Positions 32,006-50,976 of a DNA stretch of 64,000 nucleotides are shown in pieces. Made by a program: the position numbers and the translations under genes. The DNA lies in IMG/VR virus record IMGVR_UViG_3300032319_001025, positions 1 through 64,000 of that record; one strand, given 5' to 3'. The notes under the pieces are model-generated. The model saw nothing but the letters and a program-made list of their open reading frames with translations, searched no databases and had not been told where the DNA came from. Source of the DNA: a virus. Taxonomy: Duplodnaviria; Caudoviricetes. Position 1 is the first letter of the stretch, and every line of letters begins with the position of its first letter.

Positions 32006-32011
32006 TTAGGT

Positions 32012-32974: not shown

Positions 32975-32984
32975 TGGTTTTAAA

Positions 32985-35582
32985 ATGGACCCAAAAGATA
33001 AAAAAACACCAGTAGCTTCAGCCGTTGTTATTAGGCATAGTGAGTTTCCAGAACTTATATTGCACGGCAAAAGAAGAGACATTAATGAATGGAGTATTCC
33101 AGGTGGGCACGTACATAAACATGAATCTTTAAAAGACGCTGCAGTTAGAGAAACTAAAGAAGAAACTGGTTTGCAATTAGATCCAAACGATTTAGAACAT
33201 ATTGGCACAGAGCACTACAATACAAAAGAAGATAAACACTTAACGGTCCATCTGTTCGTATGTAAAAAACCTTACCATCATGAGAGCATGGATTTTACTG
33301 GTGATAAAGATGAAGAATTTAAAGAATTAAAATTTATTAATCCATTAGAGCACGATGACTTATATCAGCCAAATGGAGAAAATATTGTAACCACCTACCT
33401 TAAAGGCGAGCTTAAAAAACCTGAAATTAGTAAATCAGAAGAATTAGATAAAGGCGTAATGAAAAGGCTTTTTCCGTTTAATCCAAAAAAAGACGTTAAA
33501 ACTGAAGATAAATCAGATTTAAGGCTTTGGCAAACTTATGGTAATTATGGATATAGCGGAGAAACAATTGATGATATTGATGATGTAAAATATGTTAGAG
33601 AAGGTTTAAGCGAAATTAATCAAAATGCTAAAATGCGAGCACTTAATAAATTAACAGGGATTGCAAAAACCAAAATAAATCCTGAAACAAAAGAAAGAGA
33701 ATTCTTATTACACAGAGGAGTGAGTTCTTCAGAGTTTAAAGATTCTACCGATGGAAAGCATGCTTATCATCAAAATAAAACATCTTGGATGCCATTTTCT
33801 GATTTAGCTGAAAAATACAGGGATTCACATTATTCAACTAGTGGCAGGATAGATCGTAAAAAATCAAAAAAAGATAGTGGTAAAGTAATATCCGCTTGGA
33901 TTAGCGAAAAAAACATCCACCATATTCCTAAAATGTACGGAGCAATTCACACTCCTACATCCCATGGTTTTAATGAATATCAAGAAGAAAATGAAATAAT
34001 TGTAAATCCTCACAAATCAGCTTTAGCAACTTCAGAAGAAATAAGAGGAAAAAATGATATCTTGCGCAACAAATTAAAAGATAATTATTTAAAAAATATT
34101 TCAAAACAATTTCAAAAACCCCAAAAACTAGCAGCAACTGAAAAATCAGAACTTAAAAATTTAGAAATTTATCAATTTTTTCACAATATTTCCAATAACT
34201 TAATTAAAGTTGAGGTTAAAGATAAAAATAATTTGCAAGTAGCTGAAGCAAGCTTTAAAATAGAACTAGACAGCCTAATTGTGCCAGAAAGCTTACAGAT
34301 TGACCGTAAACATGATCAAGCAGGCTTGCAAAAAGAAATGTACATTTATGCTGACGAGGTTTTAACTTTAAATAAGCAGGAGTTAGAAAAGATGTCTCAG
34401 CCAGCTTTAAGATTTAAAAAACTAACAAAATTGCCAACAAGACCTGAGCAGGACGTTAAATTAATTAACCCTGAGCCACTTAAGGTGCCTTCACGTACAA
34501 AAGAAGAAAAAGATATAGAAGAACTTTCTGGCGGCCCTAGAACAATATCTAGACAATCCCTAGAAAATAAGAAAATAGCTAATAAAATTTTAATGATGCA
34601 CCCAGAGGCAAGTAAATCACCAAAAGAAAAAAGAGAATCGGAAAGAAAGGCTTTGGAAGCGCATATTGGTGGAGGCGAAGACGTTATTTCACCTGAAGGT
34701 ACATTTACAACATCTGGATATACCTCTGGTTTTGGAGATTTACCAGTAAGTCAGCCTTATGAAGTTAAAAAACCGTGGCCTACATCCGAAGGTAATGTAA
34801 CTCAAGAGCACGAAGCAACTCATCATTTATTAAACCATTTAAGATTCAAATATGGCGAAAATACAAAAAATAGAGTTGTCGATCATCTTTTAAACGTACA
34901 TTTGCATCCAAATGAAAGAGAAGCAATAGAAAAACTTATTAGATCTAAACCTTCATATAGAGATTTACCAGAAGGCGAATTTAATGAAGAGGTACTAACC
35001 CATCTTAGAGATTTATTAGTAAGTAAAAGAAAAAGAGAAGATCATAACTCATTAAAAATGCAACAGCCTAAATATTGGCAACCTATTGATTATAAAAGGC
35101 TTAAATCATCATGGAAACAGTTAACAGGTCATGCCAAAAGAATGACGGAAAAAGACCTAAATAAGCTTATGGGCAAAAATGAAGGCCAAATTGATTTTGA
35201 AAAGCTTTTTAAGGCTAAAAAACTTAAAACCAAGCAATTTAAGCGTTTTTATCTGGATAGAAAAAAAGATCATAGCGGCAACACTGGAAGTGGAATAGTT
35301 GCAGTAGGGGTACAGTTTCCTGGCGGTAAATGTATAGTCAATTGGATGACCGATACACCATCATTTAATTTTTATGATTCTTTGGATGATATTAAAGAAG
35401 TTCACGGGCATGATGGAGATACAGAGATTAACTTCATGGATGATTTTAACAAAACTGAAGAAATGAAAAAGTTTGAAGATATTCATGAGAAATTAGCTTC
35501 TCGGTCTAAATATCTTAGAAAAGATCCTTTGCATAAGTTGCCGTTTTTATTTTTAAATAAAAGATTCATGGGAAAAGATTAG
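32985..35582 (+). CDS. Polyvalent protein: Nudix, ART-like, degenerate GNAT, HExxH peptidase and small C-terminal domain
   Basis: Nudix box GGHVHKHESLKDAAVRETKEETGL; LHRGVS/TSW/ENEIIV; HEATH at 34809; DHSGNTGSG...HGHDGDT. Confidence 0.8.
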   Translation: MDPKDKKTPVASAVVIRHSEFPELILHGKRRDINEWSIPGGHVHKHESLKDAAVRETKEETGLQLDPNDLEHIGTEHYNTKEDKHLTVHLFVCKKPYHHESMDFTGDKDEEFKELKFINPLEHDDLYQPNGENIVTTYLKGELKKPEISKSEELDKGVMKRLFPFNPKKDVKTEDKSDLRLWQTYGNYGYSGETIDDIDDVKYVREGLSEINQNAKMRALNKLTGIAKTKINPETKEREFLLHRGVSSSEFKDSTDGKHAYHQNKTSWMPFSDLAEKYRDSHYSTSGRIDRKKSKKDSGKVISAWISEKNIHHIPKMYGAIHTPTSHGFNEYQEENEIIVNPHKSALATSEEIRGKNDILRNKLKDNYLKNISKQFQKPQKLAATEKSELKNLEIYQFFHNISNNLIKVEVKDKNNLQVAEASFKIELDSLIVPESLQIDRKHDQAGLQKEMYIYADEVLTLNKQELEKMSQPALRFKKLTKLPTRPEQDVKLINPEPLKVPSRTKEEKDIEELSGGPRTISRQSLENKKIANKILMMHPEASKSPKEKRESERKALEAHIGGGEDVISPEGTFTTSGYTSGFGDLPVSQPYEVKKPWPTSEGNVTQEHEATHHLLNHLRFKYGENTKNRVVDHLLNVHLHPNEREAIEKLIRSKPSYRDLPEGEFNEEVLTHLRDLLVSKRKREDHNSLKMQQPKYWQPIDYKRLKSSWKQLTGHAKRMTEKDLNKLMGKNEGQIDFEKLFKAKKLKTKQFKRFYLDRKKDHSGNTGSGIVAVGVQFPGGKCIVNWMTDTPSFNFYDSLDDIKEVHGHDGDTEINFMDDFNKTEEMKKFEDIHEKLASRSKYLRKDPLHKLPFLFLNKRFMGKD

Positions 35583-35590
35583 GTTTTTTT

Positions 35591-38500
35591 ATGCCAAAAA
35601 TTTTACATGGAATTTTTAGCAAGCTGGATAAATACTCCAATGACGTACAAACAAAAGCGGAAAAGTATATAAAATCTCCAGAGTTCAATGAAAAAACCTA
35701 TTTAAACCTTCTATCTGGAAAATATAACGATGATATTGCTAGAATTATAGAGGTTTTACCAAGCGTCAAAAAAAGTAAATACAACACAAAAAGCAATAAC
35801 GATAAAATAATTTCAAATGTTTTAAATTTTAAACAGAAGGATGATGCCGATTTTTTTTGGAAAGCTGGATATATTGAATATTTTTTACGGCACTTAAAAC
35901 ATTCTACAGAATCTGTAAATAAAATTATTAACTTCGTTAAGAATAAAAAAAAAATACCAACAGAGGAAAAAACCAATTTACTCCGATCCCTAAACAAAAG
36001 TTCTGAAATTAAAAAAACAAATATTAAAGATATAATAGATACCGTACCTAATGACCCAACTGGTGCATCTGTTATAAATTTATTTATAAATCACCCATCC
36101 GTAGATTCTAAAATTTTTAACGAAGTATTAAAAAAGTTTGATTTTAACAGTAATCGACTTCCAGGTGGAGTTTTAACTTCTAAATTCTTAACTTCTGAAG
36201 CTGCATTAAAAATTTTAAATGATACTGATACTATAGGTGATTCGAATGAATTAGATAAACTTTTGAGCAAATTACCTAAAAGTGCCAGAAACGATTATAT
36301 ACATTCAAAACTTGGGATTACTGGAGGTTCTAAATCTCCATCGCCAGAGGAATATGAAACTGATTGGTTTCATGGCCCAGAAAGAGATGAAATTACCGCC
36401 AGAACAATTTCTGAATCAAAATACTTAACTCCAGAAGCTATTAATCATATTAAAAAACACGGCGGTTTTGGTGAAAAATATGGATTATTTAGTAATGAAC
36501 ATGTAGATCCAAAACATGCAGCAGAAATGGCAGCAAAATGGGCCAATGATGAAGATGGTTACGAAGAATCTGATTTTAAAGAAAGACTTAAAGAAGATAA
36601 TCAAGATAACGTTTGGGATAATTATTCTGATGATGCAAGAGAAAAAGTTCAAGAAGAATACCCAATTTCTAAATACTTAAGAGATATCGGCGACGATGAA
36701 GTTTCCAGAACTCTTTTTGATAAAGATCATGATGAATGGAAAAAAGATTGGATCAAAGAAAACAAAGATTTGACAGGCCCAAATCCTGATTTTAATCCAG
36801 AAGAACCAGAAAGCGAAGATAATCCAAAAAATATTACATTTAATGAAGATGAATATGATATTAAATATCCAGTAGAAGATCATCCGAATTATAGTGATTA
36901 CGATTCGGAAGCAGAGGAAGCTTTTGAAAACGCAAAAAATCATGCGGATCTTGAACCGTTTTACGATGGTTATGATGAATCAATAAACGAAAACGTTAGC
37001 GATGCTGTTTCTGATTTATTTGATGACGAATTAGATAATTGGACTGAGCACGATCATTTTTTACCAGAACACGTTAGAGATAAATTAAAAGATCCGTTAA
37101 AAGGTAAAGAAAATCCTACAGAAAAAGATCTTGAAGAAGCTATTTATCATCCGTTAAAAATAGTTAGGGACCATGCCGCTAAACACGAAAAATTATCACC
37201 TAGACTTATCAATAAAGTTTTAGAAGAAGGTGACAAAAAAGCAAAAATGTCCGTATTAGAGAATCCTAATATCACATCGCAGCAGTTAATGAATGTAATC
37301 AAAAAAGATGATGATAAGGAAACCGTATCAAAAGCACTTCGGAATTTTAAAATAACCCCAGAGCATGTTCAAGAAGCTATCAATAGGCACAATGAAAATA
37401 GCGAAATAATGAATGCAGCTTTTAAATCCCATGCCGCAAATGATGAACACGTAAAAAACTATTTAAATATAGCTAAAAGTTCTAAAACACCTTACTATAA
37501 TGATCTAAGCCCAATTGTTAATTCTAAATTCAATTTGTCCCCAGAAGATGTTAACTTTATTTATAATAAATTTAATGAGCAGGGCAGGTATAATGATCTG
37601 TCTAAGCTGGTTTCGCATCATAATTCAACAAAAGATATTATCGAACAATCATTAAAACATCATGACTATAAAGTAAAAGAATCAGCAAAAAAAATGATGG
37701 ACAGGAAGTTCCCACAATCCGCAGATCCTGTAAATGTAAAAATGGGAACTCATCCTTTAAGGGTATTGAGAGATATAGTGTCTGAACAAGGTGGTACTAC
37801 CACAAAAGGCAAATTAAAAAATTTAGGCATAAATCCAGATAAATTTAATACACTGTTTAAGCCTAATGGCACAATTTCATCAGACGATATACAAAAAGTA
37901 ATTGATTCTGCTCCGAGTAAAAATTATAATACTTCTCATGATAAATGGACTGGAGCGCAAAGGCACTCAGCAGACCCATCTGATGTGTTTCAGCTTAATT
38001 ACACTCAAGAACATTTAAATGAAATGCAAAAAGAAGGTGTTCTAGACACTTTCCAAAAAATACATGAAGTTGCAATGAGATCTGGGCATCCAGTAAAAAA
38101 TAATACTATTGGATGGGTAAGATATACAGGAAGTCCAGAAGAAGGATTTCATATTGACGAAATTCAATCAGATTTAGGTAAGTCTATTATTAATCAAACT
38201 ATCCAACAGGCTAAAAACGCTGTACAAAACAACCAAATGACCACAGAACAAGCTGAAACAGCCGTAGAAAATGCTAAAAATAAATTTCCAGAAGACCATT
38301 TAAAGAAAATAAATAAGATACTCTTTGAAGATAAACATCCAAGTGAGATAATACACGAAGCTTTTAAAGAATATATGAGAGGTAAAGGTTTTGAAAAAAC
38401 CCCAATACATATATGGCAGCCAGAATCTAAAGCCCCAATATCAGGCATGCGTCAATCTACTAAAATATCCGCAAGTGATGCTAAAACTGCTTTAAACTCT

Positions 38501-39292
38501 GCTAAAAAAGATAGAATGGATGATGAAGCGAAAGCTTTAATTTCTTGGGGGCAAAAAAACAAATTAGCCCCAGCATCTTTTAAAGATATTACGCATGAGC
38601 ATTTAGATCAAATTGCTGAAAAATATTCAGATTTTGCAAATGCACACAGAGAGCAGCATAATTCTGATCCAGAATTACCAGTTCAGTTGCCCGTACACAT
38701 GATTGAAGGTTATGGTAAAATTCCTAAAGCTATGGGTTATAAAGAATCTTTTTATGGTAAGCTGCCTACTCAAAGTAATGAGGAATATAAAATTAAACCA
38801 GAAATAAATCAATCTGCAGCCCCGACATACGAAGATGTAATTAGAAAGAACGAAGGACAACCAACTATTTTACATCATTATAGTAGACACCAAGATCTAA
38901 AAGAACTAGACCCTAAAAAAGAGGGTATGGGTGTTAGAGGAGATCATACAAAAAGATTTTTACCATATCAAATAAAAAACTTTCCACATGTAACATTTTA
39001 TTACATAAATGATACTCCAGAGCAAATAGTTAAAGATGCAGCTAAGTCAAAATACACCGTAAAACTAGAGCCACATCAAAAACTATATAACTTGCATACA
39101 GATCCTGAAGGTTTAGGAAGGCAGGCGATTGCAGAAAACCAAGGTGCATGGAATTATGAAAAAATCTTTAATAAAATTAAAAATGCTGGATACCATGGTA
39201 TAACTGCAATAGGCTCTGAACATCCAATTATTGGAAATACCGTAATGCTATTTCATCCTCAAGCGATACATGAGGAGAAAAAATTAGTATGA
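35591..39292 (+). CDS. Large polyvalent protein: helical repeats, acidic region, DEIQSD domain and C-terminal ART-like domain
   Basis: IGWVRY...HIDEIQSDL; after the linker IRKNE comes LHHYS..LDP..G.G..TFYY..PE..AGYHGI. Confidence 0.65.
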   Translation: MPKILHGIFSKLDKYSNDVQTKAEKYIKSPEFNEKTYLNLLSGKYNDDIARIIEVLPSVKKSKYNTKSNNDKIISNVLNFKQKDDADFFWKAGYIEYFLRHLKHSTESVNKIINFVKNKKKIPTEEKTNLLRSLNKSSEIKKTNIKDIIDTVPNDPTGASVINLFINHPSVDSKIFNEVLKKFDFNSNRLPGGVLTSKFLTSEAALKILNDTDTIGDSNELDKLLSKLPKSARNDYIHSKLGITGGSKSPSPEEYETDWFHGPERDEITARTISESKYLTPEAINHIKKHGGFGEKYGLFSNEHVDPKHAAEMAAKWANDEDGYEESDFKERLKEDNQDNVWDNYSDDAREKVQEEYPISKYLRDIGDDEVSRTLFDKDHDEWKKDWIKENKDLTGPNPDFNPEEPESEDNPKNITFNEDEYDIKYPVEDHPNYSDYDSEAEEAFENAKNHADLEPFYDGYDESINENVSDAVSDLFDDELDNWTEHDHFLPEHVRDKLKDPLKGKENPTEKDLEEAIYHPLKIVRDHAAKHEKLSPRLINKVLEEGDKKAKMSVLENPNITSQQLMNVIKKDDDKETVSKALRNFKITPEHVQEAINRHNENSEIMNAAFKSHAANDEHVKNYLNIAKSSKTPYYNDLSPIVNSKFNLSPEDVNFIYNKFNEQGRYNDLSKLVSHHNSTKDIIEQSLKHHDYKVKESAKKMMDRKFPQSADPVNVKMGTHPLRVLRDIVSEQGGTTTKGKLKNLGINPDKFNTLFKPNGTISSDDIQKVIDSAPSKNYNTSHDKWTGAQRHSADPSDVFQLNYTQEHLNEMQKEGVLDTFQKIHEVAMRSGHPVKNNTIGWVRYTGSPEEGFHIDEIQSDLGKSIINQTIQQAKNAVQNNQMTTEQAETAVENAKNKFPEDHLKKINKILFEDKHPSEIIHEAFKEYMRGKGFEKTPIHIWQPESKAPISGMRQSTKISASDAKTALNSAKKDRMDDEAKALISWGQKNKLAPASFKDITHEHLDQIAEKYSDFANAHREQHNSDPELPVQLPVHMIEGYGKIPKAMGYKESFYGKLPTQSNEEYKIKPEINQSAAPTYEDVIRKNEGQPTILHHYSRHQDLKELDPKKEGMGVRGDHTKRFLPYQIKNFPHVTFYYINDTPEQIVKDAAKSKYTVKLEPHQKLYNLHTDPEGLGRQAIAENQGAWNYEKIFNKIKNAGYHGITAIGSEHPIIGNTVMLFHPQAIHEEKKLV

Positions 39293-40353
39293 AAAATTTG
39301 ATTAAACAGCCGCATTTGATTTTTTCAATGGAAAATCCTAGATATCAGGTAACCCAAAAAGATATAAATCATGGACAAGCTTTAAATATGCTTAAAGATT
39401 TAGGCGAGAATACTATTGATTCTAATGGAAAATATGGATCGGAAGAGCCATCAATTATAGTTTCTAACCCTAAAAACGTTAAAGATATAATCAAGCTTGC
39501 TAGAGATGCTGGACAAGAATCTATTATTTACTCAGATGGAAAAAGACATAAAATGATATATTTAAACGGTCCCCAAGCTGGACAAACGGTTAATGGGGAA
39601 GGTACGGTTTTCTACAATCAGAAACCAAATGATAACTACACACATTTTAAAGATCAAAACGGTAAAGATATTTATTTTACTCATAATTTTGATTTTGGTA
39701 AATCAGAGAAATTGCAAAAAACTTCTAAAATTAATTTGAATCCAGAACATGGGAAAATTATCGCAAATGCATACGAAAAAATGAAACATGATCCAAATGA
39801 TCCTAAAGTTAAAGAGGCGTATGGTGCGCTAATTAATGAAACAAAAAAACAATTTAAAGATATGTTAAATTCTGGGTTTAAATTTTCTAAAATTAAACCC
39901 GAACAGTCCAATCCATATGGCACATCAAAAGATGTACATGAAGATATAGAAAAAAATAAACATTTATGGTTTTTTCCAACAGAACAGGGATTTGGTCAAG
40001 AGGGACAAACTAAAAATCATCCAATGCTAGAATCAACTGAATTTCAATTTGAAGGTAAACCTTTATTAGCTAATGATCTGTTTAGAATAGTTCACGATTA
40101 TCGCGGTCATTATTTAGGAGGTAAAAGCTCGTTCGGACCTAAAGGAGAGCATCAAGCTTATCTTACACATAAAAAAGATTTTAGCCCTTTAGCTCAAAAA
40201 GCTTTGGCTACAGAAACTATGGGTCAAAATAATTGGGTAAATTTTGGACCATATGGAGAAAAAAACAGAAAAAACCCCGAAAACACTACATACGCAGAAC
40301 AAAAATCGGGGCTTCTTCCTGACGAAATAATAAATGGGAGATGGCACGAATGA
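39289..40353 (+). CDS. Two-domain protein: SAM-lyase/DUF3293-like plus putative metal-binding domain
   Basis: GKYGSEEPS...AGQESII; linker FGKSEKLQKT; NDLFRIVHDYRGH..GE..H..ETMGQN. Confidence 0.55.
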   Translation: MKNLIKQPHLIFSMENPRYQVTQKDINHGQALNMLKDLGENTIDSNGKYGSEEPSIIVSNPKNVKDIIKLARDAGQESIIYSDGKRHKMIYLNGPQAGQTVNGEGTVFYNQKPNDNYTHFKDQNGKDIYFTHNFDFGKSEKLQKTSKINLNPEHGKIIANAYEKMKHDPNDPKVKEAYGALINETKKQFKDMLNSGFKFSKIKPEQSNPYGTSKDVHEDIEKNKHLWFFPTEQGFGQEGQTKNHPMLESTEFQFEGKPLLANDLFRIVHDYRGHYLGGKSSFGPKGEHQAYLTHKKDFSPLAQKALATETMGQNNWVNFGPYGEKNRKNPENTTYAEQKSGLLPDEIINGRWHE

Positions 40354-41783
40354 ATCATAAACATTACAGAAGGATACTGCTCGACTCTTTTGATGAAAAT
40401 TCTTTGCAAAAAGGTTCAAAAGGCGATTGGCAAAAAGAAGGGTACAAAATACATCATGTTGGAGATCCTAAAAGTAGTTTTGACGTTATTGCAGTTTCCC
40501 CAAAAGGAGAAACCATCGGTAAGGTAAATATTGGAAGATACGAAACAAAAACAAAACCAAATCTAGTGGCTTCTAACCCAATTGTACATAAAGATCACAG
40601 ACGTAAAGGTATCGCATCTGCTATGTATCAATATGCAGAAAAAGTATCTGGTGGAGTAATGAAACCAGATGTAGGATTAACTTTATCGGCAAAACAAATG
40701 TGGGCTAAACCAAATAGACCTTTTGGCGGTAAACGTAAATATTTTCAACATTTAATATCTAAATCAGAATTAAAGAAGGCACCATTTATTCATGAACACA
40801 ATGCTTTTGCAGCAAGTAATATAGGTCCTTATATCGGAGAAGATTCAGAATTAGAATCTGTTACCAATCATAAAGGTTACAAGGTTTATAAATATAAAGA
40901 CGGCGATTATCATTATTTTGCTATACATAAAGATAACGATCCCAAAAAAGAAGTACTTTCATCAGCTACCGTATCTTCTTATTACGATCCTGAAGATCCA
41001 AATTTTGACGAAAATGAAGGGTTGCCTTATATTGAACATGCAGCAACGTTATCAGAACACCAAGGTAAAGGCATGGGAACAGCCATTCATGAGGCTGCAA
41101 CAAAACATTTTGGAACATTATTAAGCAGTACCGCGCTTTCTCCAGGAAGCGACGCAACTTGGAAAAAGATGCGTGCAAATAAAAACATAAAATTAAAAAT
41201 TGGAAGAGGTGAATCAAGTCCCTATATAGCTAAATGGATTAAAAAGCCCAAAATTAACAAAACAGAAGATTTAAATCAACTAGCTAAAGGTTTTGAAGAA
41301 TTATTTGGTTTTTTGGCTAAAGCAAAAAAGAATATTATATATATAGCTACCGATGGAGATAATATCGGTGCTTCAGTTGAAAGGGCCGCTCTATCTAACG
41401 ATATTAAAGAAATTAAAAAACAAGATAAAATTATTAAAAGAGGTAATCAAACCGTAAGAAAGTGGATTAAAAAACGCAAAGGTTCAATTTATATTGACGG
41501 TGGCGATGATATTTCTTTTACTATTCATAAAAAATATTTAGATGAAATCGAAGAACTAAGGAATAAATATCATGAGGCTACTGGATATACAATCACAGTT
41601 GGAATAGGTGATAGTATATCAGAAGCCGCTCATGCCATGGTTTATGGTAAATTAAAAGGCAAAAACCAAGTAAATAGATGGACATCAGAAATAGAATCTA
41701 TTATTTCTCAGCATGATAAAAAACCTGAATCCGCAGAAGAAAAATATCAAAAAGAAGGTCTTTTGGTTCCCAAAAAGATATAA
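40350..41783 (+). CDS. Polyvalent protein: GNAT, GNAT and mCpol (GGDD) cyclase-like domain
   Basis: HRRKGIASAMY; HQGKGMGTAIH; YIATDGDNIG...IDGGDD...TVGIG...GKNQV. ATGA overlap with the previous gene. Confidence 0.8.
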   Translation: MNHKHYRRILLDSFDENSLQKGSKGDWQKEGYKIHHVGDPKSSFDVIAVSPKGETIGKVNIGRYETKTKPNLVASNPIVHKDHRRKGIASAMYQYAEKVSGGVMKPDVGLTLSAKQMWAKPNRPFGGKRKYFQHLISKSELKKAPFIHEHNAFAASNIGPYIGEDSELESVTNHKGYKVYKYKDGDYHYFAIHKDNDPKKEVLSSATVSSYYDPEDPNFDENEGLPYIEHAATLSEHQGKGMGTAIHEAATKHFGTLLSSTALSPGSDATWKKMRANKNIKLKIGRGESSPYIAKWIKKPKINKTEDLNQLAKGFEELFGFLAKAKKNIIYIATDGDNIGASVERAALSNDIKEIKKQDKIIKRGNQTVRKWIKKRKGSIYIDGGDDISFTIHKKYLDEIEELRNKYHEATGYTITVGIGDSISEAAHAMVYGKLKGKNQVNRWTSEIESIISQHDKKPESAEEKYQKEGLLVPKKI

Positions 41784-41823
41784 CTAATTAAATATATTCA
41801 ATTATTTGCGTCTTTTTGTTATG

Positions 41824-41833
41824 ACTTAATCTT
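41824..41833 (+). promoter_or_regulatory. Putative late promoter ACTTAATCTT
   Basis: Recurring motif upstream of 41867. Confidence 0.7.
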
Positions 41834-41866
41834 TTAAGTAGGCATTATTAAAAGAGTTTTAATAAA

Positions 41867-43018
41867 ATGGCAAAACTAACAAAAACAGATTATTTTGATG
41901 CTTTGTGGAATTTGTATCAAGAAAACAAAAAAAAGGCATCTATGCCACCACACGTTGGCGGCGAAGAACAGAAATATGTTGTTCATGTTGGTGGTCAAGC
42001 AATAACCGAACCCAAAACATACAAGCAAATTATTCAAGACCATGGCGACATTAAAAGATTAGAAGCATCTGGAGCAAGAGTTCTCCCCCATGTGCCAAAA
42101 ACAACACCAAAACCGCCACCATTGCCTAAACAAACAAAGACAATGGGCAAAAACCAAGATATTAAAATACCTAAAAAAGAATTTATTAAAGAGCACAAGC
42201 GCTTAATTGATGTTCTCGAGTCTCCTTCCCATAAAGATGACGTACAGGAAGCTAAAAAACAAAGAAAAGAATTAAAAGAAATCAACAAATCAGATAAATA
42301 CTTTCAAAATTTAAAAAAGGGCTACGCACAAAAAAAACTTCCAGTAGATCCAAATAAAGAATCTCAAATGAATGCCATGTTAATAGATAAATGGCAAAAT
42401 GAACAATATACGCCAACTAGAGCATTAATTAAACCATTAACTGGAAATTTAAGGCAAAGAGCGTTAAATAGACTAGCTGGTACAACAAAAGTCAGAAAAG
42501 CAAAAGACGGCAAAAGAGAGTTTTTATTGTATCGAGGTGTTAGCGATTCTGAAAAAGATAGCGCATTAGATAACAACGTTTTAAATTATCCAGAAAACCA
42601 ATACACTTCATGGACACCACATCAGGGAATAGCTGGTAGATTTGCAAATAGCAGAATGGGTCATATTATTGGCGCATGGATTCATGAAAATGATATACAA
42701 CATTACCCTAAAATGGTTGGAAATGTATATGAAAGGCATAAAGGAAAGCCTATTAAATCCGCAAATGATTATGCTGGAGAAGATGAAATTATAGTTAGAC
42801 ATACTAGACCGCATGAAGGGCACGTAACGCATTCATTTTCTACGGATTCAAATTTTATAAAATATAACACTAAAAGTCCGATTAAAAACGAAATTAAACC
42901 AGAAAGATTGGTTGCATCAGAAGAAAAAAAGAACAACGAAGACTTCTTAAAAGAAGAAATATTGGATTTTTCCGATGAAGAAACCCTAGAGCACTCTACT
43001 AACAAGTGGAGTAAATAA
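41867..43018 (+). CDS. ADP-ribosyltransferase-like protein
   Basis: LYRGVS, YTSWT and EDEIIV (R-S-E triad); paralogous to the ART domain of 32985..35582. Confidence 0.7.
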   Translation: MAKLTKTDYFDALWNLYQENKKKASMPPHVGGEEQKYVVHVGGQAITEPKTYKQIIQDHGDIKRLEASGARVLPHVPKTTPKPPPLPKQTKTMGKNQDIKIPKKEFIKEHKRLIDVLESPSHKDDVQEAKKQRKELKEINKSDKYFQNLKKGYAQKKLPVDPNKESQMNAMLIDKWQNEQYTPTRALIKPLTGNLRQRALNRLAGTTKVRKAKDGKREFLLYRGVSDSEKDSALDNNVLNYPENQYTSWTPHQGIAGRFANSRMGHIIGAWIHENDIQHYPKMVGNVYERHKGKPIKSANDYAGEDEIIVRHTRPHEGHVTHSFSTDSNFIKYNTKSPIKNEIKPERLVASEEKKNNEDFLKEEILDFSDEETLEHSTNKWSK

Positions 43019-45774
43019 TGCCTGTTTTAACTCCAGAACAACACGAAAAGGAAATGCACTTAGCAGCTAGTTCTGGCGACTGGGATAAAGCTATAAAACA
43101 CGCAAAATCCCAACCTAAAAATTGGTCGGCTTTTGATAAATTACCCCAATATGAAATCCCCCCAGAAGCTTTTGAAAAAGTAATTAATTCGGTTCCAAAA
43201 AATGATAGGGCTAATTTTTATTTTGAGCTTGCAAGCAACCTTCATCCAAATTTAACTCATGATCAATTAGATTTTTTAGGCAGCAAAACTGGAAATGACA
43301 TTTACGCACAAGATTCAATAAAAAACCACCCTAATTGGAATCCTAAAGAATCAAAGAAAAATTTAGGTGAAAAGTCAGCATCTGATTTTTGGTTAAGCTA
43401 CGAAAGAAGAGTAGAGCCGCATCATTTTGCTACAATTAAGTCTATATTTTCTGGCAAACCAGAAGAAATAACAGATCATAGAGGTAAAACTGGAAACAGC
43501 CATTTAGGAAGTATTCAGAATGGAAGGCTATACGAAAAAGAAAGTAATATAGCCGCAAACGGACCTAAATTTTATGGCGATCAATTTTTATCAAACCTTA
43601 AAGACGTACATCCATATTTATTAGATCATGCAAAAAAAGTTCAAGACGCTATAATGCAGGATGAAAATATAGAAAAAAGAATTATAAACGGAAAACCTCA
43701 CATTAAACTTTATAGAGGTGTTGGAGGGTCTTACGCTAAAAGAATAGCAAAATCTTCAAAATATGATCCAAAAAATCATTCAGTTGAAAACAAAAAGTTT
43801 AAAATAAAATCAGCCCCCTTTAGTTCATGGTCTACTGAAAAAGAAGTAGCGGATAATTTTGCTAAATCCAGAACTAACATTACTGGAACTATAGGTCCAG
43901 CAAAACCAGGAGAATCTATAACACTATCTTCGTGGATTCCAGTAGAAAACATTTTACATTCGGGCTTTCATAGAATTCATACAGGTCAAGAACATGCACA
44001 TCCACATGAATCAGAAATAATAGTATCTCATCCAACAGGATACATGAATTTAAATTCAAAAGATTTACACCTCGTTAATACACTTAAAGACCCCTATTCA
44101 AGCGAAATTGAAAAAGTTTCAACAAGAGGCATTATCCCACAAAAACTGGCTGCATCAGAAAAAGAATATTTTAATGATTTGTTAGAAAAAAACCTCAGAT
44201 CTAAAATTGCTGCAGCAGCTCTAGGAGCATCTTTATTATCTACGCCAGCAAACATAAAAGAAATAAAACGACCATTAAATCAAATTCAAGAAAAACAAAC
44301 TCAATTACATCCAGATTTAGTTGATATTTCAGCAATTGAGAGTAATTACGGAAAAAACAAACAACATAAAAAAGTTTTAACTGGCGTTAACATGGGACAT
44401 AAAGCCGCTGGAGCTACTGGCTTAATGCCATTAACCATTAAAGAAACTATTAAAAGAAATAAAAACTTATCCGATAGATACCCACAAACCATTTCAATGG
44501 ATCACGATCAGTTAACTGATTTTATTAATAAAAACCCAAACATTGAAAACAAAATAGCTAATGCACATTATAAAAAACTTTTAAAGGTTTTTAGTAATAA
44601 CAAAAATAAAGCGATTTTTGCCTGGAGGAACGGCATTTCCGCAGCCAAAAACGCTTCACAAGAAGAAATAAATAACAATCCCTATGTAATAGCAGTAAAT
44701 AAAGCAAAAATAAACATAAATAAATCAGATAAATACTTTAAAAGTCTTAAAAAAACAAATACTAAGATTAATCAACCAAATAAAATAAATAAAAAATTTA
44801 TAGCTGTTATTAATAAAGGCACGTTATCAGATGGAAAATATAATCCTTCCCCTTTATATTATGTGGGCGATGGCAATCACATGACAGAACCATATAAAGC
44901 TATGGCTTTTGATTCAATAGAGCAAGGTAGAAAAGAAATTGAAAATTCTTGGAAAAAAAGATCTCAAAATGAAGAATATAAAAGAACGGCACCACATCCT
45001 TTTGACATTAGCTTTATAGAAGATCCAAGGCCAGGAAAATGGAACGAAGATGAAAGTTATTATGAAGATGAAAGCGGTAATCCAATTTTAGACAGTAAAG
45101 GCAATGTCATACACGCAAAAATGCCAAAACTAGAATTTAACGAACCTAATTCTATTATGGTGCATGTGGAAGACCCTTCAGATCAAAAAGAGCTAAAGCA
45201 AAAACAAAAATTAGCTTCAAGCTTAAAAAGCCAGGGCAAAAAAGTAGATTTAGTATATCCCAAAATGCCAGAACAAAAGGTAAAAATACAATCATACAAA
45301 GAAGCAATGAAAGAAATAGCAGAGCAGGAAGCAAAACAAAAATTAAAAGATTACGGATATGATGATGAAGGAGTAAAACAAGCTATTCAAACATCAGGAG
45401 AAAAAACAAACGTTATTCCAGAAAAATTAGCAGCATCTGAGCTTTATTTTAAAAATCTTAAAAAATCAAATGAAAACAAACAATTATTAAATAAATGGAA
45501 AAAATATTTTAAATCAAAAATCAAAAAAACTGACGGCATTACAACTACTACAATGCCAAGAGGACAAAGCCCTGGTCAAACAGGCCCATCATTAAATGGA
45601 ACATCAATTAAAGAACAGCCCAGAGGCCCGATTGGAACAATTAGGCCGTCAAAGGATTTACAGCAGATTTCACAGTCTTTTACGGGCAATTTGGGACAAC
45701 CTGGTATATCAGCAGCTGCATCAAATCTTAGAAGATTTTTGGGTAAATCTAAAGGTTTAAATAAAAAACAATAA
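43018..45774 (+). CDS. Polyvalent protein: ART-like and SLT lytic transglycosylase domains
   Basis: LYRGV/FSSWS/ESEIIV; ISAIESNYG, GATGLMPLT, AWRNG and YV. Confidence 0.75.
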   Translation: MPVLTPEQHEKEMHLAASSGDWDKAIKHAKSQPKNWSAFDKLPQYEIPPEAFEKVINSVPKNDRANFYFELASNLHPNLTHDQLDFLGSKTGNDIYAQDSIKNHPNWNPKESKKNLGEKSASDFWLSYERRVEPHHFATIKSIFSGKPEEITDHRGKTGNSHLGSIQNGRLYEKESNIAANGPKFYGDQFLSNLKDVHPYLLDHAKKVQDAIMQDENIEKRIINGKPHIKLYRGVGGSYAKRIAKSSKYDPKNHSVENKKFKIKSAPFSSWSTEKEVADNFAKSRTNITGTIGPAKPGESITLSSWIPVENILHSGFHRIHTGQEHAHPHESEIIVSHPTGYMNLNSKDLHLVNTLKDPYSSEIEKVSTRGIIPQKLAASEKEYFNDLLEKNLRSKIAAAALGASLLSTPANIKEIKRPLNQIQEKQTQLHPDLVDISAIESNYGKNKQHKKVLTGVNMGHKAAGATGLMPLTIKETIKRNKNLSDRYPQTISMDHDQLTDFINKNPNIENKIANAHYKKLLKVFSNNKNKAIFAWRNGISAAKNASQEEINNNPYVIAVNKAKININKSDKYFKSLKKTNTKINQPNKINKKFIAVINKGTLSDGKYNPSPLYYVGDGNHMTEPYKAMAFDSIEQGRKEIENSWKKRSQNEEYKRTAPHPFDISFIEDPRPGKWNEDESYYEDESGNPILDSKGNVIHAKMPKLEFNEPNSIMVHVEDPSDQKELKQKQKLASSLKSQGKKVDLVYPKMPEQKVKIQSYKEAMKEIAEQEAKQKLKDYGYDDEGVKQAIQTSGEKTNVIPEKLAASELYFKNLKKSNENKQLLNKWKKYFKSKIKKTDGITTTTMPRGQSPGQTGPSLNGTSIKEQPRGPIGTIRPSKDLQQISQSFTGNLGQPGISAAASNLRRFLGKSKGLNKKQ

Positions 45775-45836
45775 TAAAATATATAACTAGTTGAATTAAT
45801 TAAATAAAATTAATCAAAAAAGCATTATTTTATATT

Positions 45837-45846
45837 ACTTAATCTA
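45837..45846 (+). promoter_or_regulatory. Putative late promoter ACTTAATCTA
   Basis: Recurring motif upstream of 45863. Confidence 0.7.
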
Positions 45847-45862
45847 TCAAATAGAGGTAATT

Positions 45863-47845
45863 ATGTCTAAGTCCTTATTAGAACAGGCTCAGGAATTATT
45901 AAAAAGCATTGAAAACAATCCAGAAGCATTAAAAGCTTTTCAAGAGCTTGTAAAAGCACGCGCAGAAGAATCAAAGCACATTGAAATGGAAATGTCACCA
46001 GACCAAGAAAAGAAAAAACGCATTGATGAATTGTCCAAAAAAATTAAAGCTTGCATGGAAAAAATGCAAAAAGAATCAATGGATAAAGACGACAAGCCAC
46101 ATTTACCAGGAACTCCAGAAGATAAAGCTCATGATGTTGTCGAAGAAGGCGAAAGTGTTAAAGAAGCCATTCACGGATTAAAAGATAAAAGTGAAGATTC
46201 TAAAAAAGAAATGCTTTCACATTTAAGATCTTTAAAAGATAAATCCCAGCTTAGAAGCCCAGAAAACAGGGAAGCTGGTAAAGAACCTCATGAAAAAGCT
46301 GAAACTGGACACGAAAAAGGTGTTCATCAAGCAGATTACAGCACAACTTATATAAAAGATAATAAAATTCAGCACGGTATTTCAACTGCTGGAATTAGAG
46401 CAAGAGAAGCCTCTAAACCCCGTTCTTTTAAAGAATATGAAGAATCACCTAAAGCAGCAAAGGCGGGTCACGAAAGAGTATTAGAAGAAATTAAACAACA
46501 GCCTAAACCCAACCTTCCTAAAACTGAAAAAGCTGAAACAGAAAAATCTGTACACGGAGTTCCAGGAAAAAATAGGCCGTTACATTCACGTGGCATACAC
46601 GAAACTGTAAGTCAAAGCAGCTCAGAGTTTGGCGGCGAAGCAAAAGAAAAAAGCCTTGCTGGATTAAAAGTAAGACGTGGAGATACTGCAGGAGCAAAGA
46701 AGGCACATAAAGAAATTGTTTCCGAGCAGAAAAAAATGCCTGTTGCAAAATTACCAAAAGCTGAAACAGAAAAAAATGAAACTTATTACAGAAATTTAGT
46801 TAAAAATACTTTAGAAAAACAACTAATGTCTCCACCGTTCGGAATGAGCGAAATGGAAAAAGAAGAAGACCCAAGAGAAATGGTTGAATCAAGTTTAATG
46901 GCAATTCACAGAAAAGCTAATTATTTGCAAAAATTGCTTCATGAAGTTTGCGAATGTAAAGAAGTGCCAGCTTGGGTTCAAGATAAGCTTTCTTCTGCTA
47001 AAACGCATATGACCGATGTAATGGATTTTATTGCATCTCAAGCAGGAAAAGGTAGTCATCATGAAGAGCAAGAAATGCACCCAGCCGAAACTGCAGAAAT
47101 TGTAGTAACTAAATCTGAATTAGAAAAAGCCAAAATTGACGAAGGTAAACAACTAGGAAGCAAAATAGCAGCAAGACAAGAAAGAAATATTAGGGACGTA
47201 ATTACAACTAAAACCCCTTCTGGACAAAAAACAAGGACAGCAAGATCTTCTGCAAGAAGAGAAAAAGAACTAGAAGAAGGTAAAAAGCCAGAATCTCTCT
47301 TATCTGCTTTAAAAGAGCATGCGGAAAGAAGGAAAGGCGAAAAAATTGTAGGAAAACCTAAAACACTAGAAAATATTAGCGGTAGAGACATTAGAGGCAA
47401 GTCTGCTGAACAAAGAGCTGGCGTACACATGCATTCTGGTTCAATGGCAGGTAAAGAAATGCCAATTGGAGTTTCTGCACCAGTTTTTGCAGATAAAAAA
47501 GGTAAAGCTTATCCTATTGGTGGATTATTCGGTGAAAATAAATATTCTTCTAAAGTTAGACATGAAGAAGTAATGGAAGGCTTAAAAAACATTAAGCCAA
47601 GTTTACCTAAGTCCGAAATGAAAAAAGAACAGCTCGAGCCAGCTCCGAAACCACAAAGCAAACCTAAAATGATTGCACCGCCTGCTAGTGGTGCTGGTGC
47701 AAGCGATGGGGGTCATGGCAACTGGAAAGGCGACGGAAAAGGCCCGAAAATGAAAAAACCAGTAAAATTTAACTATAAAATTGCAAAAGCTGAAAAAGTA
47801 CAATATTATTCAAATTTAGTTAAATCTTTATTAGATAAAAAGTAA
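45863..47845 (+). CDS. Lys/Glu-rich putative internal head or scaffold-like protein
   Basis: Many K-[A/S/T/N]-E motifs, three GVH...H..V.....LPK[TAS]E repeats and a PAWVQDKL motif. Confidence 0.65.
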   Translation: MSKSLLEQAQELLKSIENNPEALKAFQELVKARAEESKHIEMEMSPDQEKKKRIDELSKKIKACMEKMQKESMDKDDKPHLPGTPEDKAHDVVEEGESVKEAIHGLKDKSEDSKKEMLSHLRSLKDKSQLRSPENREAGKEPHEKAETGHEKGVHQADYSTTYIKDNKIQHGISTAGIRAREASKPRSFKEYEESPKAAKAGHERVLEEIKQQPKPNLPKTEKAETEKSVHGVPGKNRPLHSRGIHETVSQSSSEFGGEAKEKSLAGLKVRRGDTAGAKKAHKEIVSEQKKMPVAKLPKAETEKNETYYRNLVKNTLEKQLMSPPFGMSEMEKEEDPREMVESSLMAIHRKANYLQKLLHEVCECKEVPAWVQDKLSSAKTHMTDVMDFIASQAGKGSHHEEQEMHPAETAEIVVTKSELEKAKIDEGKQLGSKIAARQERNIRDVITTKTPSGQKTRTARSSARREKELEEGKKPESLLSALKEHAERRKGEKIVGKPKTLENISGRDIRGKSAEQRAGVHMHSGSMAGKEMPIGVSAPVFADKKGKAYPIGGLFGENKYSSKVRHEEVMEGLKNIKPSLPKSEMKKEQLEPAPKPQSKPKMIAPPASGAGASDGGHGNWKGDGKGPKMKKPVKFNYKIAKAEKVQYYSNLVKSLLDKK

Positions 47846-47846
47846 T

Positions 47847-48089
47847 ATGTCTAAAAAAGACAAAAAGTACAATACTTTTGAAGATTCGGCAAAAAGAACC
47901 GAATTCAAGAAAAATATTGAATACAAAGAGCCTATGCTTCAGCTTAATTTTGATGCATGGTTCACCAAGGTTGCTAACGAAAGAAAGTTTAACAGCAATC
48001 TTAAAGAAGCTCTAAAACTTCATTTTGAAGTTAACGGGTTTATGGAAAATAAAAAGTTTGATGAAGGATTAAAACACTTCGGCTTTTAA
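47847..48089 (+). CDS. Small protein preceding the tail sheath
   Basis: Operonic ORF. Confidence 0.6.
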   Translation: MSKKDKKYNTFEDSAKRTEFKKNIEYKEPMLQLNFDAWFTKVANERKFNSNLKEALKLHFEVNGFMENKKFDEGLKHFGF

Positions 48090-48110
48090 AAAGAGCAAGA
48101 AAATCAAATA

Positions 48111-48120
48111 ACTTAATCTT
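48111..48120 (+). promoter_or_regulatory. Putative late promoter ACTTAATCTT
   Basis: Upstream of the sheath gene. Confidence 0.75.
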
Positions 48121-48149
48121 ATACTATAAGATATAGGGAGTATTTAAAA

Positions 48150-50960
48150 ATGGCTCAATCATATACTACAGATAGCGGAATAACATTAAAGATTCCAGGT
48201 ACTTATGTAGAACAACAAGTCCGTTCAAATCAAGGCGGGGTTGCTACTGCTGGAATCGTCACCCTAATTGGTGAAGCTAACGAAGGTCCAGATTATACTC
48301 AAGAATCAGATTTAGATGCAAATTTATTTTCTCCTAGTGACATCGCCTCTGTCATAGTTAAATACGGTTCTGGACGAATTGTAGATGCTTTTAGAGCTAT
48401 TGTAGCCGCAGCTAATGATCCAGCTATTGTAGGTTCTGTTTCTGGTGTTAAAATTGTAAAAGTTAATGCTTCTTCTACTGCTGAAGCTATGTTGGCTCGA
48501 GCTGGTTTTGGTGATTATGCCACAATGTCGGCAAGAAGAGCTGGTGCCCCTGGAAACTTGATTAAATATTTAAATAGCGTAGCAACCGCTGAATTAGCAC
48601 CAACAACAGGTGCATTTTCTTATGTTCCGCATTATAGCGCATCGGCTGTTTCATTTAATTTAAGACAGAACGGATCTGCAGTAGACTCAAATTCTATCGC
48701 TAGTTTAACCGATGGACCTACCTTTGCCTCAACTATTGAAAACATTGCTTTAGGTACTCTGGCTTCTGGCGGAACCCTTAAAAAACCTTTAACTAGCTCT
48801 GTAGGTAACATCTCAGTTGCTGTAGTTGATGCCGGAACAAGTTTAATCGCCATTACAATGCCTGGTTCTATCGCTTCGGCAAATTTACCTTCGGTCGGAG
48901 ATTCTCTAGTTATCCCAAAAACTGGTGATTTTGGTGCCGCTGCTGATTCCGATATTATCGGTGCTGCTGATGCTAACAGAGGCGCATACATAGTTACTGA
49001 CGTTGTTAACGGAACCACAACTGCTATTATTACGGCAAAAAGATTAAACGCACCTTCAGGTGCTCCATCTGTAGCTGCAGTATTAGCTACTCCAATTTCT
49101 TCTGATGAATCGGTTCTTTGCTACACTCAAGTAGAAGTTAAAAATATTACTGGAATGGATAGACAATCTACCGTTGGATTATCTGGCGTGACATTCAATA
49201 CTACATCTAATTCTAACGGCACTTTTGTAATGTCGTTGAGCACTTCTTGGGCAGCTCAACCAAAAGCTGGTGATTATGTTAAAGTAGCTTCCCCGTTTGC
49301 TGGAGTTGCTGCTGGTCTTTATCAGGTAACAACATCTACTTCAAGTTCTTTTACTTGTTCCAGACTTTCAAACGGTTCTTCTGGAGCAACAGGTTCTCAA
49401 TTAGTTGCTGGTCCAATTTCTCAAGGTGCTCAACCTTTTACTGTTTTAAAACCTGCAATTGACGGTTTAGGTAAGAGCATGGAAATTGTTTCCGAGCCTT
49501 CATCGATTTGTAAAAACCCTGCTACTGGTGCTGCAGCTGCTTTTGCTACAGGAAAACCTCTGCTAGTTTCTGGTGCAGAATATAAAGTTTCTACTACTAT
49601 TAGCCGTAGCAACACTACAGATACTTTTAAATCTGGCGGAAGCGTAATTGCAAGCTTTGGTTGCATTGAAGAACTAGCTGATATGGTAGTAGGTTCTTCA
49701 GATATTAAATTTAGAATTAATGGTTCAGAAATCTTTGCTTGTGCTTACGATCAATTCCCAACAATAAAAGATGTTGTTGATTTTGCTAACAGCCAAACAG
49801 GATTTTCTGGCGCAGTTACTACTTCTAGCTTTAATTTAACTGCTTCTAGCAGCTTGGATAGAGGCACATTTAAATTAAGCGCATCGTCGGCTTCTTCTAA
49901 GCCAGCTCGAGTTAAAAAGGATGCGATTGAATTTCAAACAAATGCGAGCGGCGGCTCTTTAGCAACCGTTTCTTTGGCTGGAGTTCAATCTGGTCTTCCA
50001 GAAGCTATGGATTTAGCACAGTTTTTAACTGGTGGAGCTAAAGGCGGTAGCACTGGAGCTAATTGGGTATCAGCAATTGATGCATGCCAAGGAGTTATTA
50101 CAAACTTCATGGTTCCGTTGATCAGTAAAGATGCATCTGCCGATATTTTAACTGGAGATACAGAATCAACTTCTACCTATACAGTTGATGCTGTCAATGC
50201 TTATTTAAAATCTCATGTTGTTGACATGAGTTCTTTAAAAGCTCGTAAAAATCGTTCAGCTATTGTTTCAAAAAGCGGCACTTATGAAGAACAAAAGCAA
50301 GCTGCTTCATCTTTAGCAAGCTATAGAGTGTCAATGGCTTTCCAAGATGTTAAAGCTATAAGCGGAAGCGGTACAATCGTCCAATATCAACCTTGGATGG
50401 CTGCAATTATCGCTGCAGGAATGCAAGCTGCTGCTGGATACAGAGGTATCGTTAAAAAGTTTGCTAACATTAGCGGTATCGTTAAACCCGAAAAAGACTT
50501 TGACACTAAAATACCTTCTAACCTAGAAGATGCTTTAACTGCAGGTCTTTTAATTCTTGAGCCAGTTCAAACTGGTGGATTTAGATGGGTTTCAGACCAA
50601 ACAACTTATTCTGCTGATAATAATTTTGTGTACAACAGTCTACAAGCTGTTTATATCGCAGATATTATGGCTCTTACATTAATTCAAAATTTTGATAGAG
50701 CTATTGTTGGTAAGTCTGTCGCTGAAATTAGTGCTCAAATTGCATTAGTTTTCTTAGAAAGCGAAATGTTTAACTTCTTAAGATTAAAATTCATAGCTCC
50801 ATCTGATGATGCTCCAAAAGGCTATAAAAATGCCAAAGTTACACTTAAAGGTGGAGTAATGAGCATATATCTAGAAGCTAAGCTAGCTGGACTAATTTAT
50901 TTCGTGCCTATACAGTTCGAAATCAGTCAAGTTGAACAAACAGCTACACAAGCTCAATAA
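48150..50960 (+). CDS. Contractile tail sheath protein
   Basis: IPGTYVE N-terminus, LIGEANEGP, ARRAGAPGN, and a sheath-like C-terminus (FRWVSDQTTY, IYFVPIQFEI); 936 aa. Confidence 0.88.
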   Translation: MAQSYTTDSGITLKIPGTYVEQQVRSNQGGVATAGIVTLIGEANEGPDYTQESDLDANLFSPSDIASVIVKYGSGRIVDAFRAIVAAANDPAIVGSVSGVKIVKVNASSTAEAMLARAGFGDYATMSARRAGAPGNLIKYLNSVATAELAPTTGAFSYVPHYSASAVSFNLRQNGSAVDSNSIASLTDGPTFASTIENIALGTLASGGTLKKPLTSSVGNISVAVVDAGTSLIAITMPGSIASANLPSVGDSLVIPKTGDFGAAADSDIIGAADANRGAYIVTDVVNGTTTAIITAKRLNAPSGAPSVAAVLATPISSDESVLCYTQVEVKNITGMDRQSTVGLSGVTFNTTSNSNGTFVMSLSTSWAAQPKAGDYVKVASPFAGVAAGLYQVTTSTSSSFTCSRLSNGSSGATGSQLVAGPISQGAQPFTVLKPAIDGLGKSMEIVSEPSSICKNPATGAAAAFATGKPLLVSGAEYKVSTTISRSNTTDTFKSGGSVIASFGCIEELADMVVGSSDIKFRINGSEIFACAYDQFPTIKDVVDFANSQTGFSGAVTTSSFNLTASSSLDRGTFKLSASSASSKPARVKKDAIEFQTNASGGSLATVSLAGVQSGLPEAMDLAQFLTGGAKGGSTGANWVSAIDACQGVITNFMVPLISKDASADILTGDTESTSTYTVDAVNAYLKSHVVDMSSLKARKNRSAIVSKSGTYEEQKQAASSLASYRVSMAFQDVKAISGSGTIVQYQPWMAAIIAAGMQAAAGYRGIVKKFANISGIVKPEKDFDTKIPSNLEDALTAGLLILEPVQTGGFRWVSDQTTYSADNNFVYNSLQAVYIADIMALTLIQNFDRAIVGKSVAEISAQIALVFLESEMFNFLRLKFIAPSDDAPKGYKNAKVTLKGGVMSIYLEAKLAGLIYFVPIQFEISQVEQTATQAQ

Positions 50961-50976
50961 AATCAACTATTTATAT

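Follow-up and report, generated by a model that had tools for sequence, protein, structure and literature searches.

A genuine mCpol domain with intact catalytic motifs in a polyvalent protein of an Mx1-like phage: a candidate writer of nucleotide signals

The protein considered here is encoded at 40341-41783 on the plus strand of a 64,000-nucleotide stretch of viral DNA (the window), which is the first 64 kb of IMG/VR record IMGVR_UViG_3300032319_001025, a complete virus of 144,013 bp with direct terminal repeats. Residues 334-445 of this 480-residue protein are a genuine mCpol (minimal Cas10-palm nucleotide cyclase) domain, the match being far beyond chance. The protein has two marks of a polyvalent protein, since it holds at least two unrelated enzymatic domains (GNAT and mCpol both pass Pfam) and adjoins virion genes, as seen from a same-strand gene run and from synteny. 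We propose, and regard the matter as evenly balanced, that the domain is the working cyclase cassette of a particle-delivered polyvalent protein that would tamper with the nucleotide-based immune signalling of the host. The proposal builds on the family and fold of the domain, its intact catalytic residues, its behaviour as a cassette, the phage and virion-module context and conservation across the lineage; from these it reaches to a presumed enzymatic activity, a product, packaging and delivery, and a target.

The Pfam mCpol profile (PF18182; cut-off 26.4 bits) matched the protein at E 2.7e-19 with a score of 70.1 bits, and the match takes in positions 1-112 of the 114 in the profile. When the whole record was searched with this profile in six frames, a single profile-level mCpol was found, at 73.6 bits. 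The initial annotation had recognised the family from the motifs YIATDGDNIG (DGD at 41352), GGDD (41499-41510), TVGIG and GKNQV, all of which lie in frame in the gene, and the profile comparison agrees with that assignment. The Cas10/Cmr2 Palm2 profile (PF22335) reached 21.7 bits, under its cut-off of 27, other Cas10 domains were not present, and the GGDEF family (PF00990) gave no Pfam match at E up to 1 in the 480 residues, the motif reading GGDDI. The same annotation had described a stand-alone domain of about 115 residues fused to two GNATs. While the Pfam domain does have this extent, the conserved mobile unit is larger, about 150 residues including a tail. The first GNAT is clear, with 34.4 bits in the whole protein and 21.3 bits when scanned alone (residues 35-102), and is the best part of an otherwise poor full-length model (predicted local distance difference test score, pLDDT, of 75-89 for this part and 56 for the whole). 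The second is only probable, since its region scanned alone (residues ~185-257) scored 17.6 bits with PF00583, under the cut-off of 20.7, though the motif HQGKGMG is present and the low-confidence full-length model has a beta-rich core followed by a helix there (pLDDT 63-79). The features of the gene are:

40341-41783, plus strand: gene of the 480-residue polyvalent protein (GNAT, GNAT-like, mCpol), from the open reading frame list and Pfam; the first 13 nt are shared with the end of the upstream gene
40431-40730, plus strand: GNAT domain 1 (residues ~31-130), motif A HRRKGIA at 40596-40616; PF00583 E 2.9e-8, PF13508 E 7.5e-8
40737-40778, plus strand: inter-domain linker KYFQHLISKSELKK (residues 133-146), within the low-pLDDT segment 133-168
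40848-41126, plus strand: probable GNAT domain 2 (residues ~170-262), motif-A-like HQGKGMG at 41058-41078, from the sub-cut-off PF00583 match and the model
41262-41321, plus strand: pre-cassette linker (TEDLNQLAKGFEELFGFLAK), kept in close relatives in a flank comparison of internal copies
41313-41765, plus strand: mobile mCpol cassette (residues 325-475), the Pfam domain with a conserved C-terminal tail, from homologue extents, conserved borders and the AlphaFold2 (AF2) model
41340-41675, plus strand: Pfam mCpol domain proper (residues 334-445), from PF18182 and Foldseek
41340-41369, plus strand: in-frame motif YIATDGDNIG
41352-41360, plus strand: DGD (D338, D340) on strand 1, the first metal-binding motif, from the phmmer alignment to 9nwn and 9mnr
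41499-41510, plus strand: GGDD (residues 387-390) on the beta-hairpin, from the alignment to OptS
41595-41609, plus strand: in-frame motif TVGIG
41646-41672, plus strand: in-frame motif GKLKGKNQV
41736-41765, plus strand: conserved tail motif EEKYQKEGLL, from conservation in the polyvalent proteins and in the carrier proteins described below; a lower-confidence helix in the model

Residues 325-480 were modelled with AF2 from an alignment of 67 relatives, giving a pLDDT of 91.2 and a predicted template modelling (TM) score of 0.81. The model has the order of a palm: strand, two helices, hairpin, helix, strand, helix, strand. Foldseek placed crystal structures of OptS/mCpol (9pd0, 9mnr, 9nwn) at ranks 1-6, with target TM scores of 0.77-0.84 and root mean square deviations of 2.2-3.5, so that the palm expected for the domain is indeed predicted; GGDEF, GTP cyclohydrolase III (2qv6) and Cas10 ranked below these. 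At the sequence level, a phmmer search with the cassette matched 9nwn (E 1.5e-4) and 9mnr (E 4e-4), and a Cas10 chain (9arw) only at E 0.047. The nearest clusters in the ESM Atlas were bacterial mCpol proteins with scores of 0.96-0.97, with GTP cyclohydrolase III (GCH_III) clusters at 0.90-0.93. The presence of this enzyme among the fold and feature neighbours raises the question of other chemistry on the same fold, namely GCH_III-like hydrolysis, Thg1-like 3'-5' addition or the making of a conjugate such as SAM-AMP, a compound that Cas10 variants are known to produce (PMC13577387); SAM-lyase cassettes also accompany mCpol in the relatives. We consider such chemistry very improbable, as the mCpol profile and the OptS structures are clearly the best matches and neither GCH_III nor Thg1 gave a Pfam match at E up to 1 in the 480 residues.

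OptS is the synthase of the Panoptes system, of which type I makes 2',3'-c-di-AMP and type II makes cyclic triadenylate (cA3) (PMC12657218, PMC12657230, PMC13577387). In the alignment, D338 and D389 of the phage protein fall on Asp6 and Asp57 of KpOptS, which are metal ligands required for activity (PMC12657218), and both are kept in the clade to which the cassette belongs. The adjacent D389/D390 resembles the D63/D64 pair of the cA3-making type II enzyme (PMC13577387), D63 being the equivalent of D389; the metal-binding pair of Cst is D11 with D63. With DGD and GGDD both intact, residues 325-475 are apparently a catalytically competent palm of the mCpol type, as predicted from these motifs. 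The base-reading position differs. D362 (41424-41426) aligns with the base-reading Ser30 of KpOptS, and this column holds Asp in a small subclade (column pair DK or DR) and Ser in most polyvalent and carrier copies. The Asp hints at a different nucleotide preference.

The domain behaves as a shuffled cassette in metagenomic and viral proteins. An exhaustive search with residues 325-480 returned 861 relatives, of which 28 reached E 1e-30 or better. Homologues match query residues ~1-152 irrespective of the position of the cassette in their own chains; in the closest relatives, which are proteins of 160-2,933 residues, it starts anywhere from residue 10 to residue 1972. GGDD is present in all of the top relatives (26/26). 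The mobile unit, of about 150 residues (325-475), comprises the Pfam domain and a tail ending in EEKxxxxGLL. Its borders are sharp across the metagenomic family, with a KS[ED]-type linker (KS[ED]-x-hydrophobic) followed by a RTEGRVFVSMDGDNI-like start, as compared between 40737-40778 and 41262-41321 of the window and the internal copies in relatives P0005-P0157 and L002-L005. Beyond the domain, the tail reads (T/S)PEEKxxxHGLL or EEKxQDExYL in polyvalent and carrier forms alike. It may be that these border motifs are cleavage or docking signals.

The Pfam partners of mCpol in 14 scanned relatives were NUDIX (7), DUF5661 (6), SAM-lyase/DUF3293 (4), GNAT (3) and the 'ART in polyvalent proteins' domain (1). 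Cassette neighbours thus vary freely between relatives and fusion to GNAT is not obligatory. GNAT and mCpol as a functional pair was considered and rejected, GNAT being the rarer companion in comparison with NUDIX. The same order of GNAT, GNAT and mCpol was found in P0152, which is encoded on a 139-kb contig and is 50% identical over 98% of the length. A FastTree phylogeny places the cassette in a clade (support 0.91) whose 58 sequences include 44 internal copies and 50 with GGDD, the polyvalent copies forming a GGDD clade of their own. A motif census of 233 domains found DGD with GGD[DE] in 61 of the 69 internal copies, which indicates selection on catalysis.

The gene that carries the cassette also appears in other settings. 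In related viral contigs a polyvalent mCpol gene (L003:8300-10825 and L004:9317-11044) lies in another gene block, flanked by homologues of the 71301-73886 gene of this genome and of its 73959-80663 gene (2,234 residues), both of which are outside the window; the cassette-bearing gene itself therefore moves around the genome. A 172-kb viral contig encodes a carrier-type protein of 748 residues (L017:9947-12190) in which mCpol comes first and the GNAT domain or domains after, the opposite order to the window protein. By contrast, tblastn with the whole 480-residue protein as query found nothing in 50,697 phage records, and tblastn of the corresponding carrier of Myxococcus phage Mx1 against cultured phage records matched only itself, so the family is essentially absent from cultured phages except for the degenerate copy in Mx1 described below.

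In the genome, the cassette gene lies inside an unbroken same-strand run (22950-52480) of overlapping or closely spaced genes that continues through the tail sheath. PHROG families recognised in the run include a tail fibre protein, a virion structural protein, the tail sheath (48150-50960) and an HNH endonuclease, which, in a complete virus record, substantiates the earlier view of a phage gene among virion genes. The block itself consists of multi-enzyme polyvalent proteins on one strand between the neck genes and the tail sheath, and the genes beside the cassette gene encode proteins of the polyvalent and virion kinds. Among cultured phages Mx1 is the closest, with a sheath 37.5% identical over the full length; the phage studied here is an Mx1-like myophage with its mCpol gene in the late, virion-gene block. 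A scan for promoters and terminators in 32000-51000 yielded no excess of sites over shuffled sequence and is uninformative about operon structure. Upstream, a protein of 865 residues (32985-35582, plus strand) has an N-terminal NUDIX domain, and a family annotated as portal protein is among its best PHROG matches. The latter match implies that NUDIX-portal fusions occur elsewhere, consistent with polyvalent cargo.

Polyvalent proteins encoded beside virion genes were inferred by Iyer et al. (2017) to be packaged and injected, and rare GGDEF and RelA/SpoT cassettes were noted there as possible writers of nucleotide signals (PMC5512222). The window protein resembles these in having unrelated enzyme domains on one chain, virion-gene neighbours and the shuffled company of NUDIX, ART-PolyVal, GNAT and SAM-lyase/DUF3293. 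It differs in that the writer is mCpol, which was not reported in phages there, and in that the cassette also heads a carrier gene. Since neighbouring ART and GNAT cassettes are classic host-hijacking enzymes, the product could instead serve host takeover or the exclusion of rival phages, reprogramming the host or firing an effector against competitors rather than jamming immunity. We consider this unlikely, no receptor or effector domain having been detected in the phage.

The commonest form of the domain in viruses is a different one. Relatives were found at 74 viral loci in IMG/VR, and in 59 of these the domain is N-terminal in a protein of 340-870 residues, which we call the carrier. A homologue of window gene 31137 directly follows the carrier in 51 of the 59 N-terminal-type loci and homologues of the window's virion-module genes occur in 58, the usual order being a 27560-like gene, a 28510-like gene, the carrier, a 31137-like gene, a 32012-like gene, and then the sheath and a 56672-like gene. 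Many carriers end with a motif of the type PVG..GKIKV..W..VRAG, including WNM70340.1 of Mx1. The carriers share with the polyvalent cassette the mCpol family, the tail motif, the phage lineage and the virion module. This indicates that mCpol belongs to the virion module throughout the lineage of Mx1-like phages, and suggests a general rather than a niche role. The phage studied here has its own carrier, which no Pfam or PHROG family recognises:

29855-31135, plus strand: carrier gene, 426 residues with a Q/E-rich middle, identified by synteny (after 27560 and 28510, before 31137 and 32012)
29855-30163, plus strand: dead mCpol-like domain of the carrier (residues 1-103), from hhalign, the family hidden Markov model (HMM) and a column census
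30992-31078, plus strand: C-terminal motif LPIGT..KIKV..WRQV, common to Mx1 and many loci

Residues 1-103 of this carrier match the mCpol family with an hhalign probability of 96% (E 3.6e-9) and 31 bits by the family HMM, and the motifs have been lost: NAT stands in place of DGD, LYER in place of GGDD and HTKE in place of GKNQ. What sets this phage apart is therefore a dead mCpol in the carrier and a live one in a polyvalent protein 9 kb downstream. An 85%-identical relative (L002) likewise combines a dead mCpol in its carrier with a live one in a polyvalent protein; a profile search of five related viral records retrieved live copies only and missed this dead carrier, which the family HMM detects. 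Among N-terminal copies the census counted 77 with DGD/GGDE, 28 with NGD/SGDE and 13 with DAD/GGDE, plus a few fully degenerate ones, including those of this phage and of Mx1.

In Mx1, the carrier orthologue is WNM70340.1, annotated 'hypothetical protein' (L076:14645-16051; OR576727.2 33963-35369). Its mCpol domain is degenerate, with a sub-cut-off Pfam score of 24.4 bits, 83 bits by the family HMM, and SID/LGAV at the catalytic columns. Since Mx1 has a dead carrier and no detectable second copy, a live copy elsewhere in the genome is not a rule, which argues against strict compensation. The persistence of dead copies in the carriers of both phages implies that the fold serves a purpose other than catalysis as well. 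A search of the Mx1 literature turned up a 2018 review and no virion proteome.

The possibility that the live and dead domains of the present phage associate was assessed by complex prediction. Paired with the dead carrier domain, the live cassette scored 0.41 (best control 0.00). Of 80 solved complexes 58 attained that mark, as did 2 of 110 mismatched pairs; scores at 0.60 or under came from only 7 of those 80 solved complexes, plus both mismatches. The runs agreed in at least 50% of contacts and the partner pLDDT was at least 69. The pairing is thus weakly supported by the modelling, and its pass may reflect likeness to solved mCpol dimers. Some relatives hold two mCpol stretches on one chain (L050, P0009 and P0028), and two matched stretches were also seen in P0048, P0069, P0084 and P0111. 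At L050:9989-11392 a first domain that looks live (DAD/GGDE) is followed by one without the motifs, an arrangement that recalls Palm1 and Palm2 of Cas10. These tandem palms make a Cas10-like live/dead pairing conceivable, as a lead only. The likeness to type III Cas10 extends to the GGDD and to the occurrence of a live and a degenerate palm in one genome, or on one chain in these three relatives; the phage protein differs in having no HD, zinc-ribbon or D4 domains and no CRISPR RNA complex. A fuller scenario, which we regard as doubtful, is that this phage lineage carries mCpol in the particle and forges immune cyclic nucleotides at the time of DNA entry, the live cassette docking on the dead carrier palm. 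A Cas10-like live/dead pair would then anchor and complete the enzyme, and the result would be a 'signal writer' form of counter-defence that mirrors the sponges and esterases and could silence inverse-logic guards, Panoptes among them.

The carriers also bear on the idea that mCpol is mainly a structural or assembly module, its palm oligomerising or anchoring a virion-module protein with catalysis secondary. A domain that heads a conserved carrier at a fixed place in the virion module in the great majority of viral loci, that persists in fully dead versions here and in Mx1, and that gives a weakly supportive pairing score between the live cassette and the dead carrier would fit such a role. 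We nevertheless rate it as unlikely, since the catalytic residues are kept in nearly all internal copies and in most carrier copies, which is unexpected for a purely structural part, and since the copy in the polyvalent protein has no physical link to the carrier chain.

The nearest relative of known function remains OptS. The cassette shares with OptS/mCpol the Pfam family, the minimal palm fold and both metal-binding Asp positions, and like OptS/mCpol it has no sensor domain and would probably be constitutive, judging from its domain content. However, identity is only ~20%, and the phage cassette has a Cas10-like GGDD, a motif almost lost in type I OptS. OptS is a free protein of ~125 residues in a bacterial defence island and has Ser or Asn as its base-reading residue, whereas the phage cassette has Asp there, bears a conserved C-terminal tail of ~35 residues, is embedded in a multi-enzyme protein within a late virion-gene run, and has no recognised effector partner. 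The Panoptes system as a whole belongs to bacteria or archaea, often lies beside CBASS, and has an adjacent or fused effector; the phage cassette is encoded by a virus and no S-2TM-beta (Cap15-like), CARF-TM or SAVED-2TM effector was matched, these being weak negatives.

The membership of the cassette in the same enzyme family as the Panoptes synthase also suggests a more specific function. In Panoptes, the mCpol product works as an antitoxin (PMC12657230), and the phage enzyme could be an antidote that makes the guard nucleotide, as an antitoxin mimic, and so keeps OptE or CARF-TM silent even as host signals are being depleted by the phage. The resemblance of the DD pair to the type II enzyme would suit this function. 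Literature searches (the Panoptes papers, a 2026 review, and full-text searches for mCpol with polyvalent and for anti-Panoptes) revealed no phage-encoded mCpol and no phage counter to Panoptes. Yet Panoptes is described as relatively rare, whereas mCpol is fixed over the whole phage lineage. The genome search gave no Tad2-like sponge and no 2H esterase, either of which would trigger Panoptes or require the guard pool to be refilled, and the low identity to OptS, the altered base-reading residue and the persistence of dead copies in the carriers do not favour it either. An antidote dedicated to Panoptes is accordingly, in our judgement, an unlikely function.

For the particle-delivered cyclase that we propose, the course of events would be as follows. 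The protein would be made late, together with the particle proteins, carried in the particle either whole or cut at its linkers, and would enter the next host along with the DNA. There the cassette would pair with a second palm domain, as the palms of OptS, GGDEF and Cas10 do, and, having no sensor, would convert ATP, possibly with another NTP, to a cyclic di- or tri-nucleotide. This product would forge or jam the nucleotide-based immune signalling of the host, either keeping inverse-logic guards such as Panoptes off or occupying or desensitising receptors of the CARF, SAVED or Cap15 type. The cassette would act beside the neighbouring NUDIX, SAM-lyase, ART and GNAT cassettes.

Several observations weigh against this proposal. 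The base-reading residue differs from that of OptS and the product therefore cannot be guessed from OptS. In Mx1 the degenerate carrier copy is the only detectable mCpol, and catalysis is thus dispensable in part of the lineage. Six-frame searches of the 144-kb genome gave no match to SAVED, Cap15_CD_rec or Cas_APE2256, although these negatives are weak since no control genome matched these three families either. Similar searches for a Tad2-like sponge and for a 2H (Acb1-type) esterase were negative, other sponge families not having been searched. The first of these results upholds, genome-wide and with the same weakness, the earlier observation that no CARF or 2TM effector accompanies the gene. 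It also bears on the possibility that the phage carries a Panoptes-like defence system of its own with an unrecognised effector nearby. While defence is the only role so far established for mCpol, the genome search turned up no 2TM, CARF or SAVED partner, the domain forms part of a polyvalent protein in a late structural gene run, and its gene neighbours already vary among relatives. In addition, pattern scans of 185,579 cellular genomes (with the single protein and with a tighter alignment) detected no relatives, unlike what would be expected of a prophage-borne island, although the scans are insensitive and leave absence from cells unproven. We regard a phage-borne defence system as the least probable of the explanations considered, and extremely so.

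Phages are known to counter nucleotide immune signalling with erasers (Acb1 and the ring nucleases) and with sponges (Acb2, Tad1/2), and mCpol has so far been known only as the bacterial guard synthase of Panoptes. What is new in this window is a polyvalent GGDD clade of mCpol together with a live/dead pair in one genome. The finding of an mCpol that is conserved, and often catalytically intact, in the virion module of a widespread lineage of phages, and that is also shuffled among polyvalent cargo, points to phages that write signals. It raises the questions of what the product is, whether it would silence Panoptes or jam CARF, SAVED or Cap15 receptors, and whether the enzyme would be delivered ready-made with the DNA. 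The live/dead pair in one genome is a natural experiment that may reveal whether it is the catalysis or the fold that is needed by the particle.

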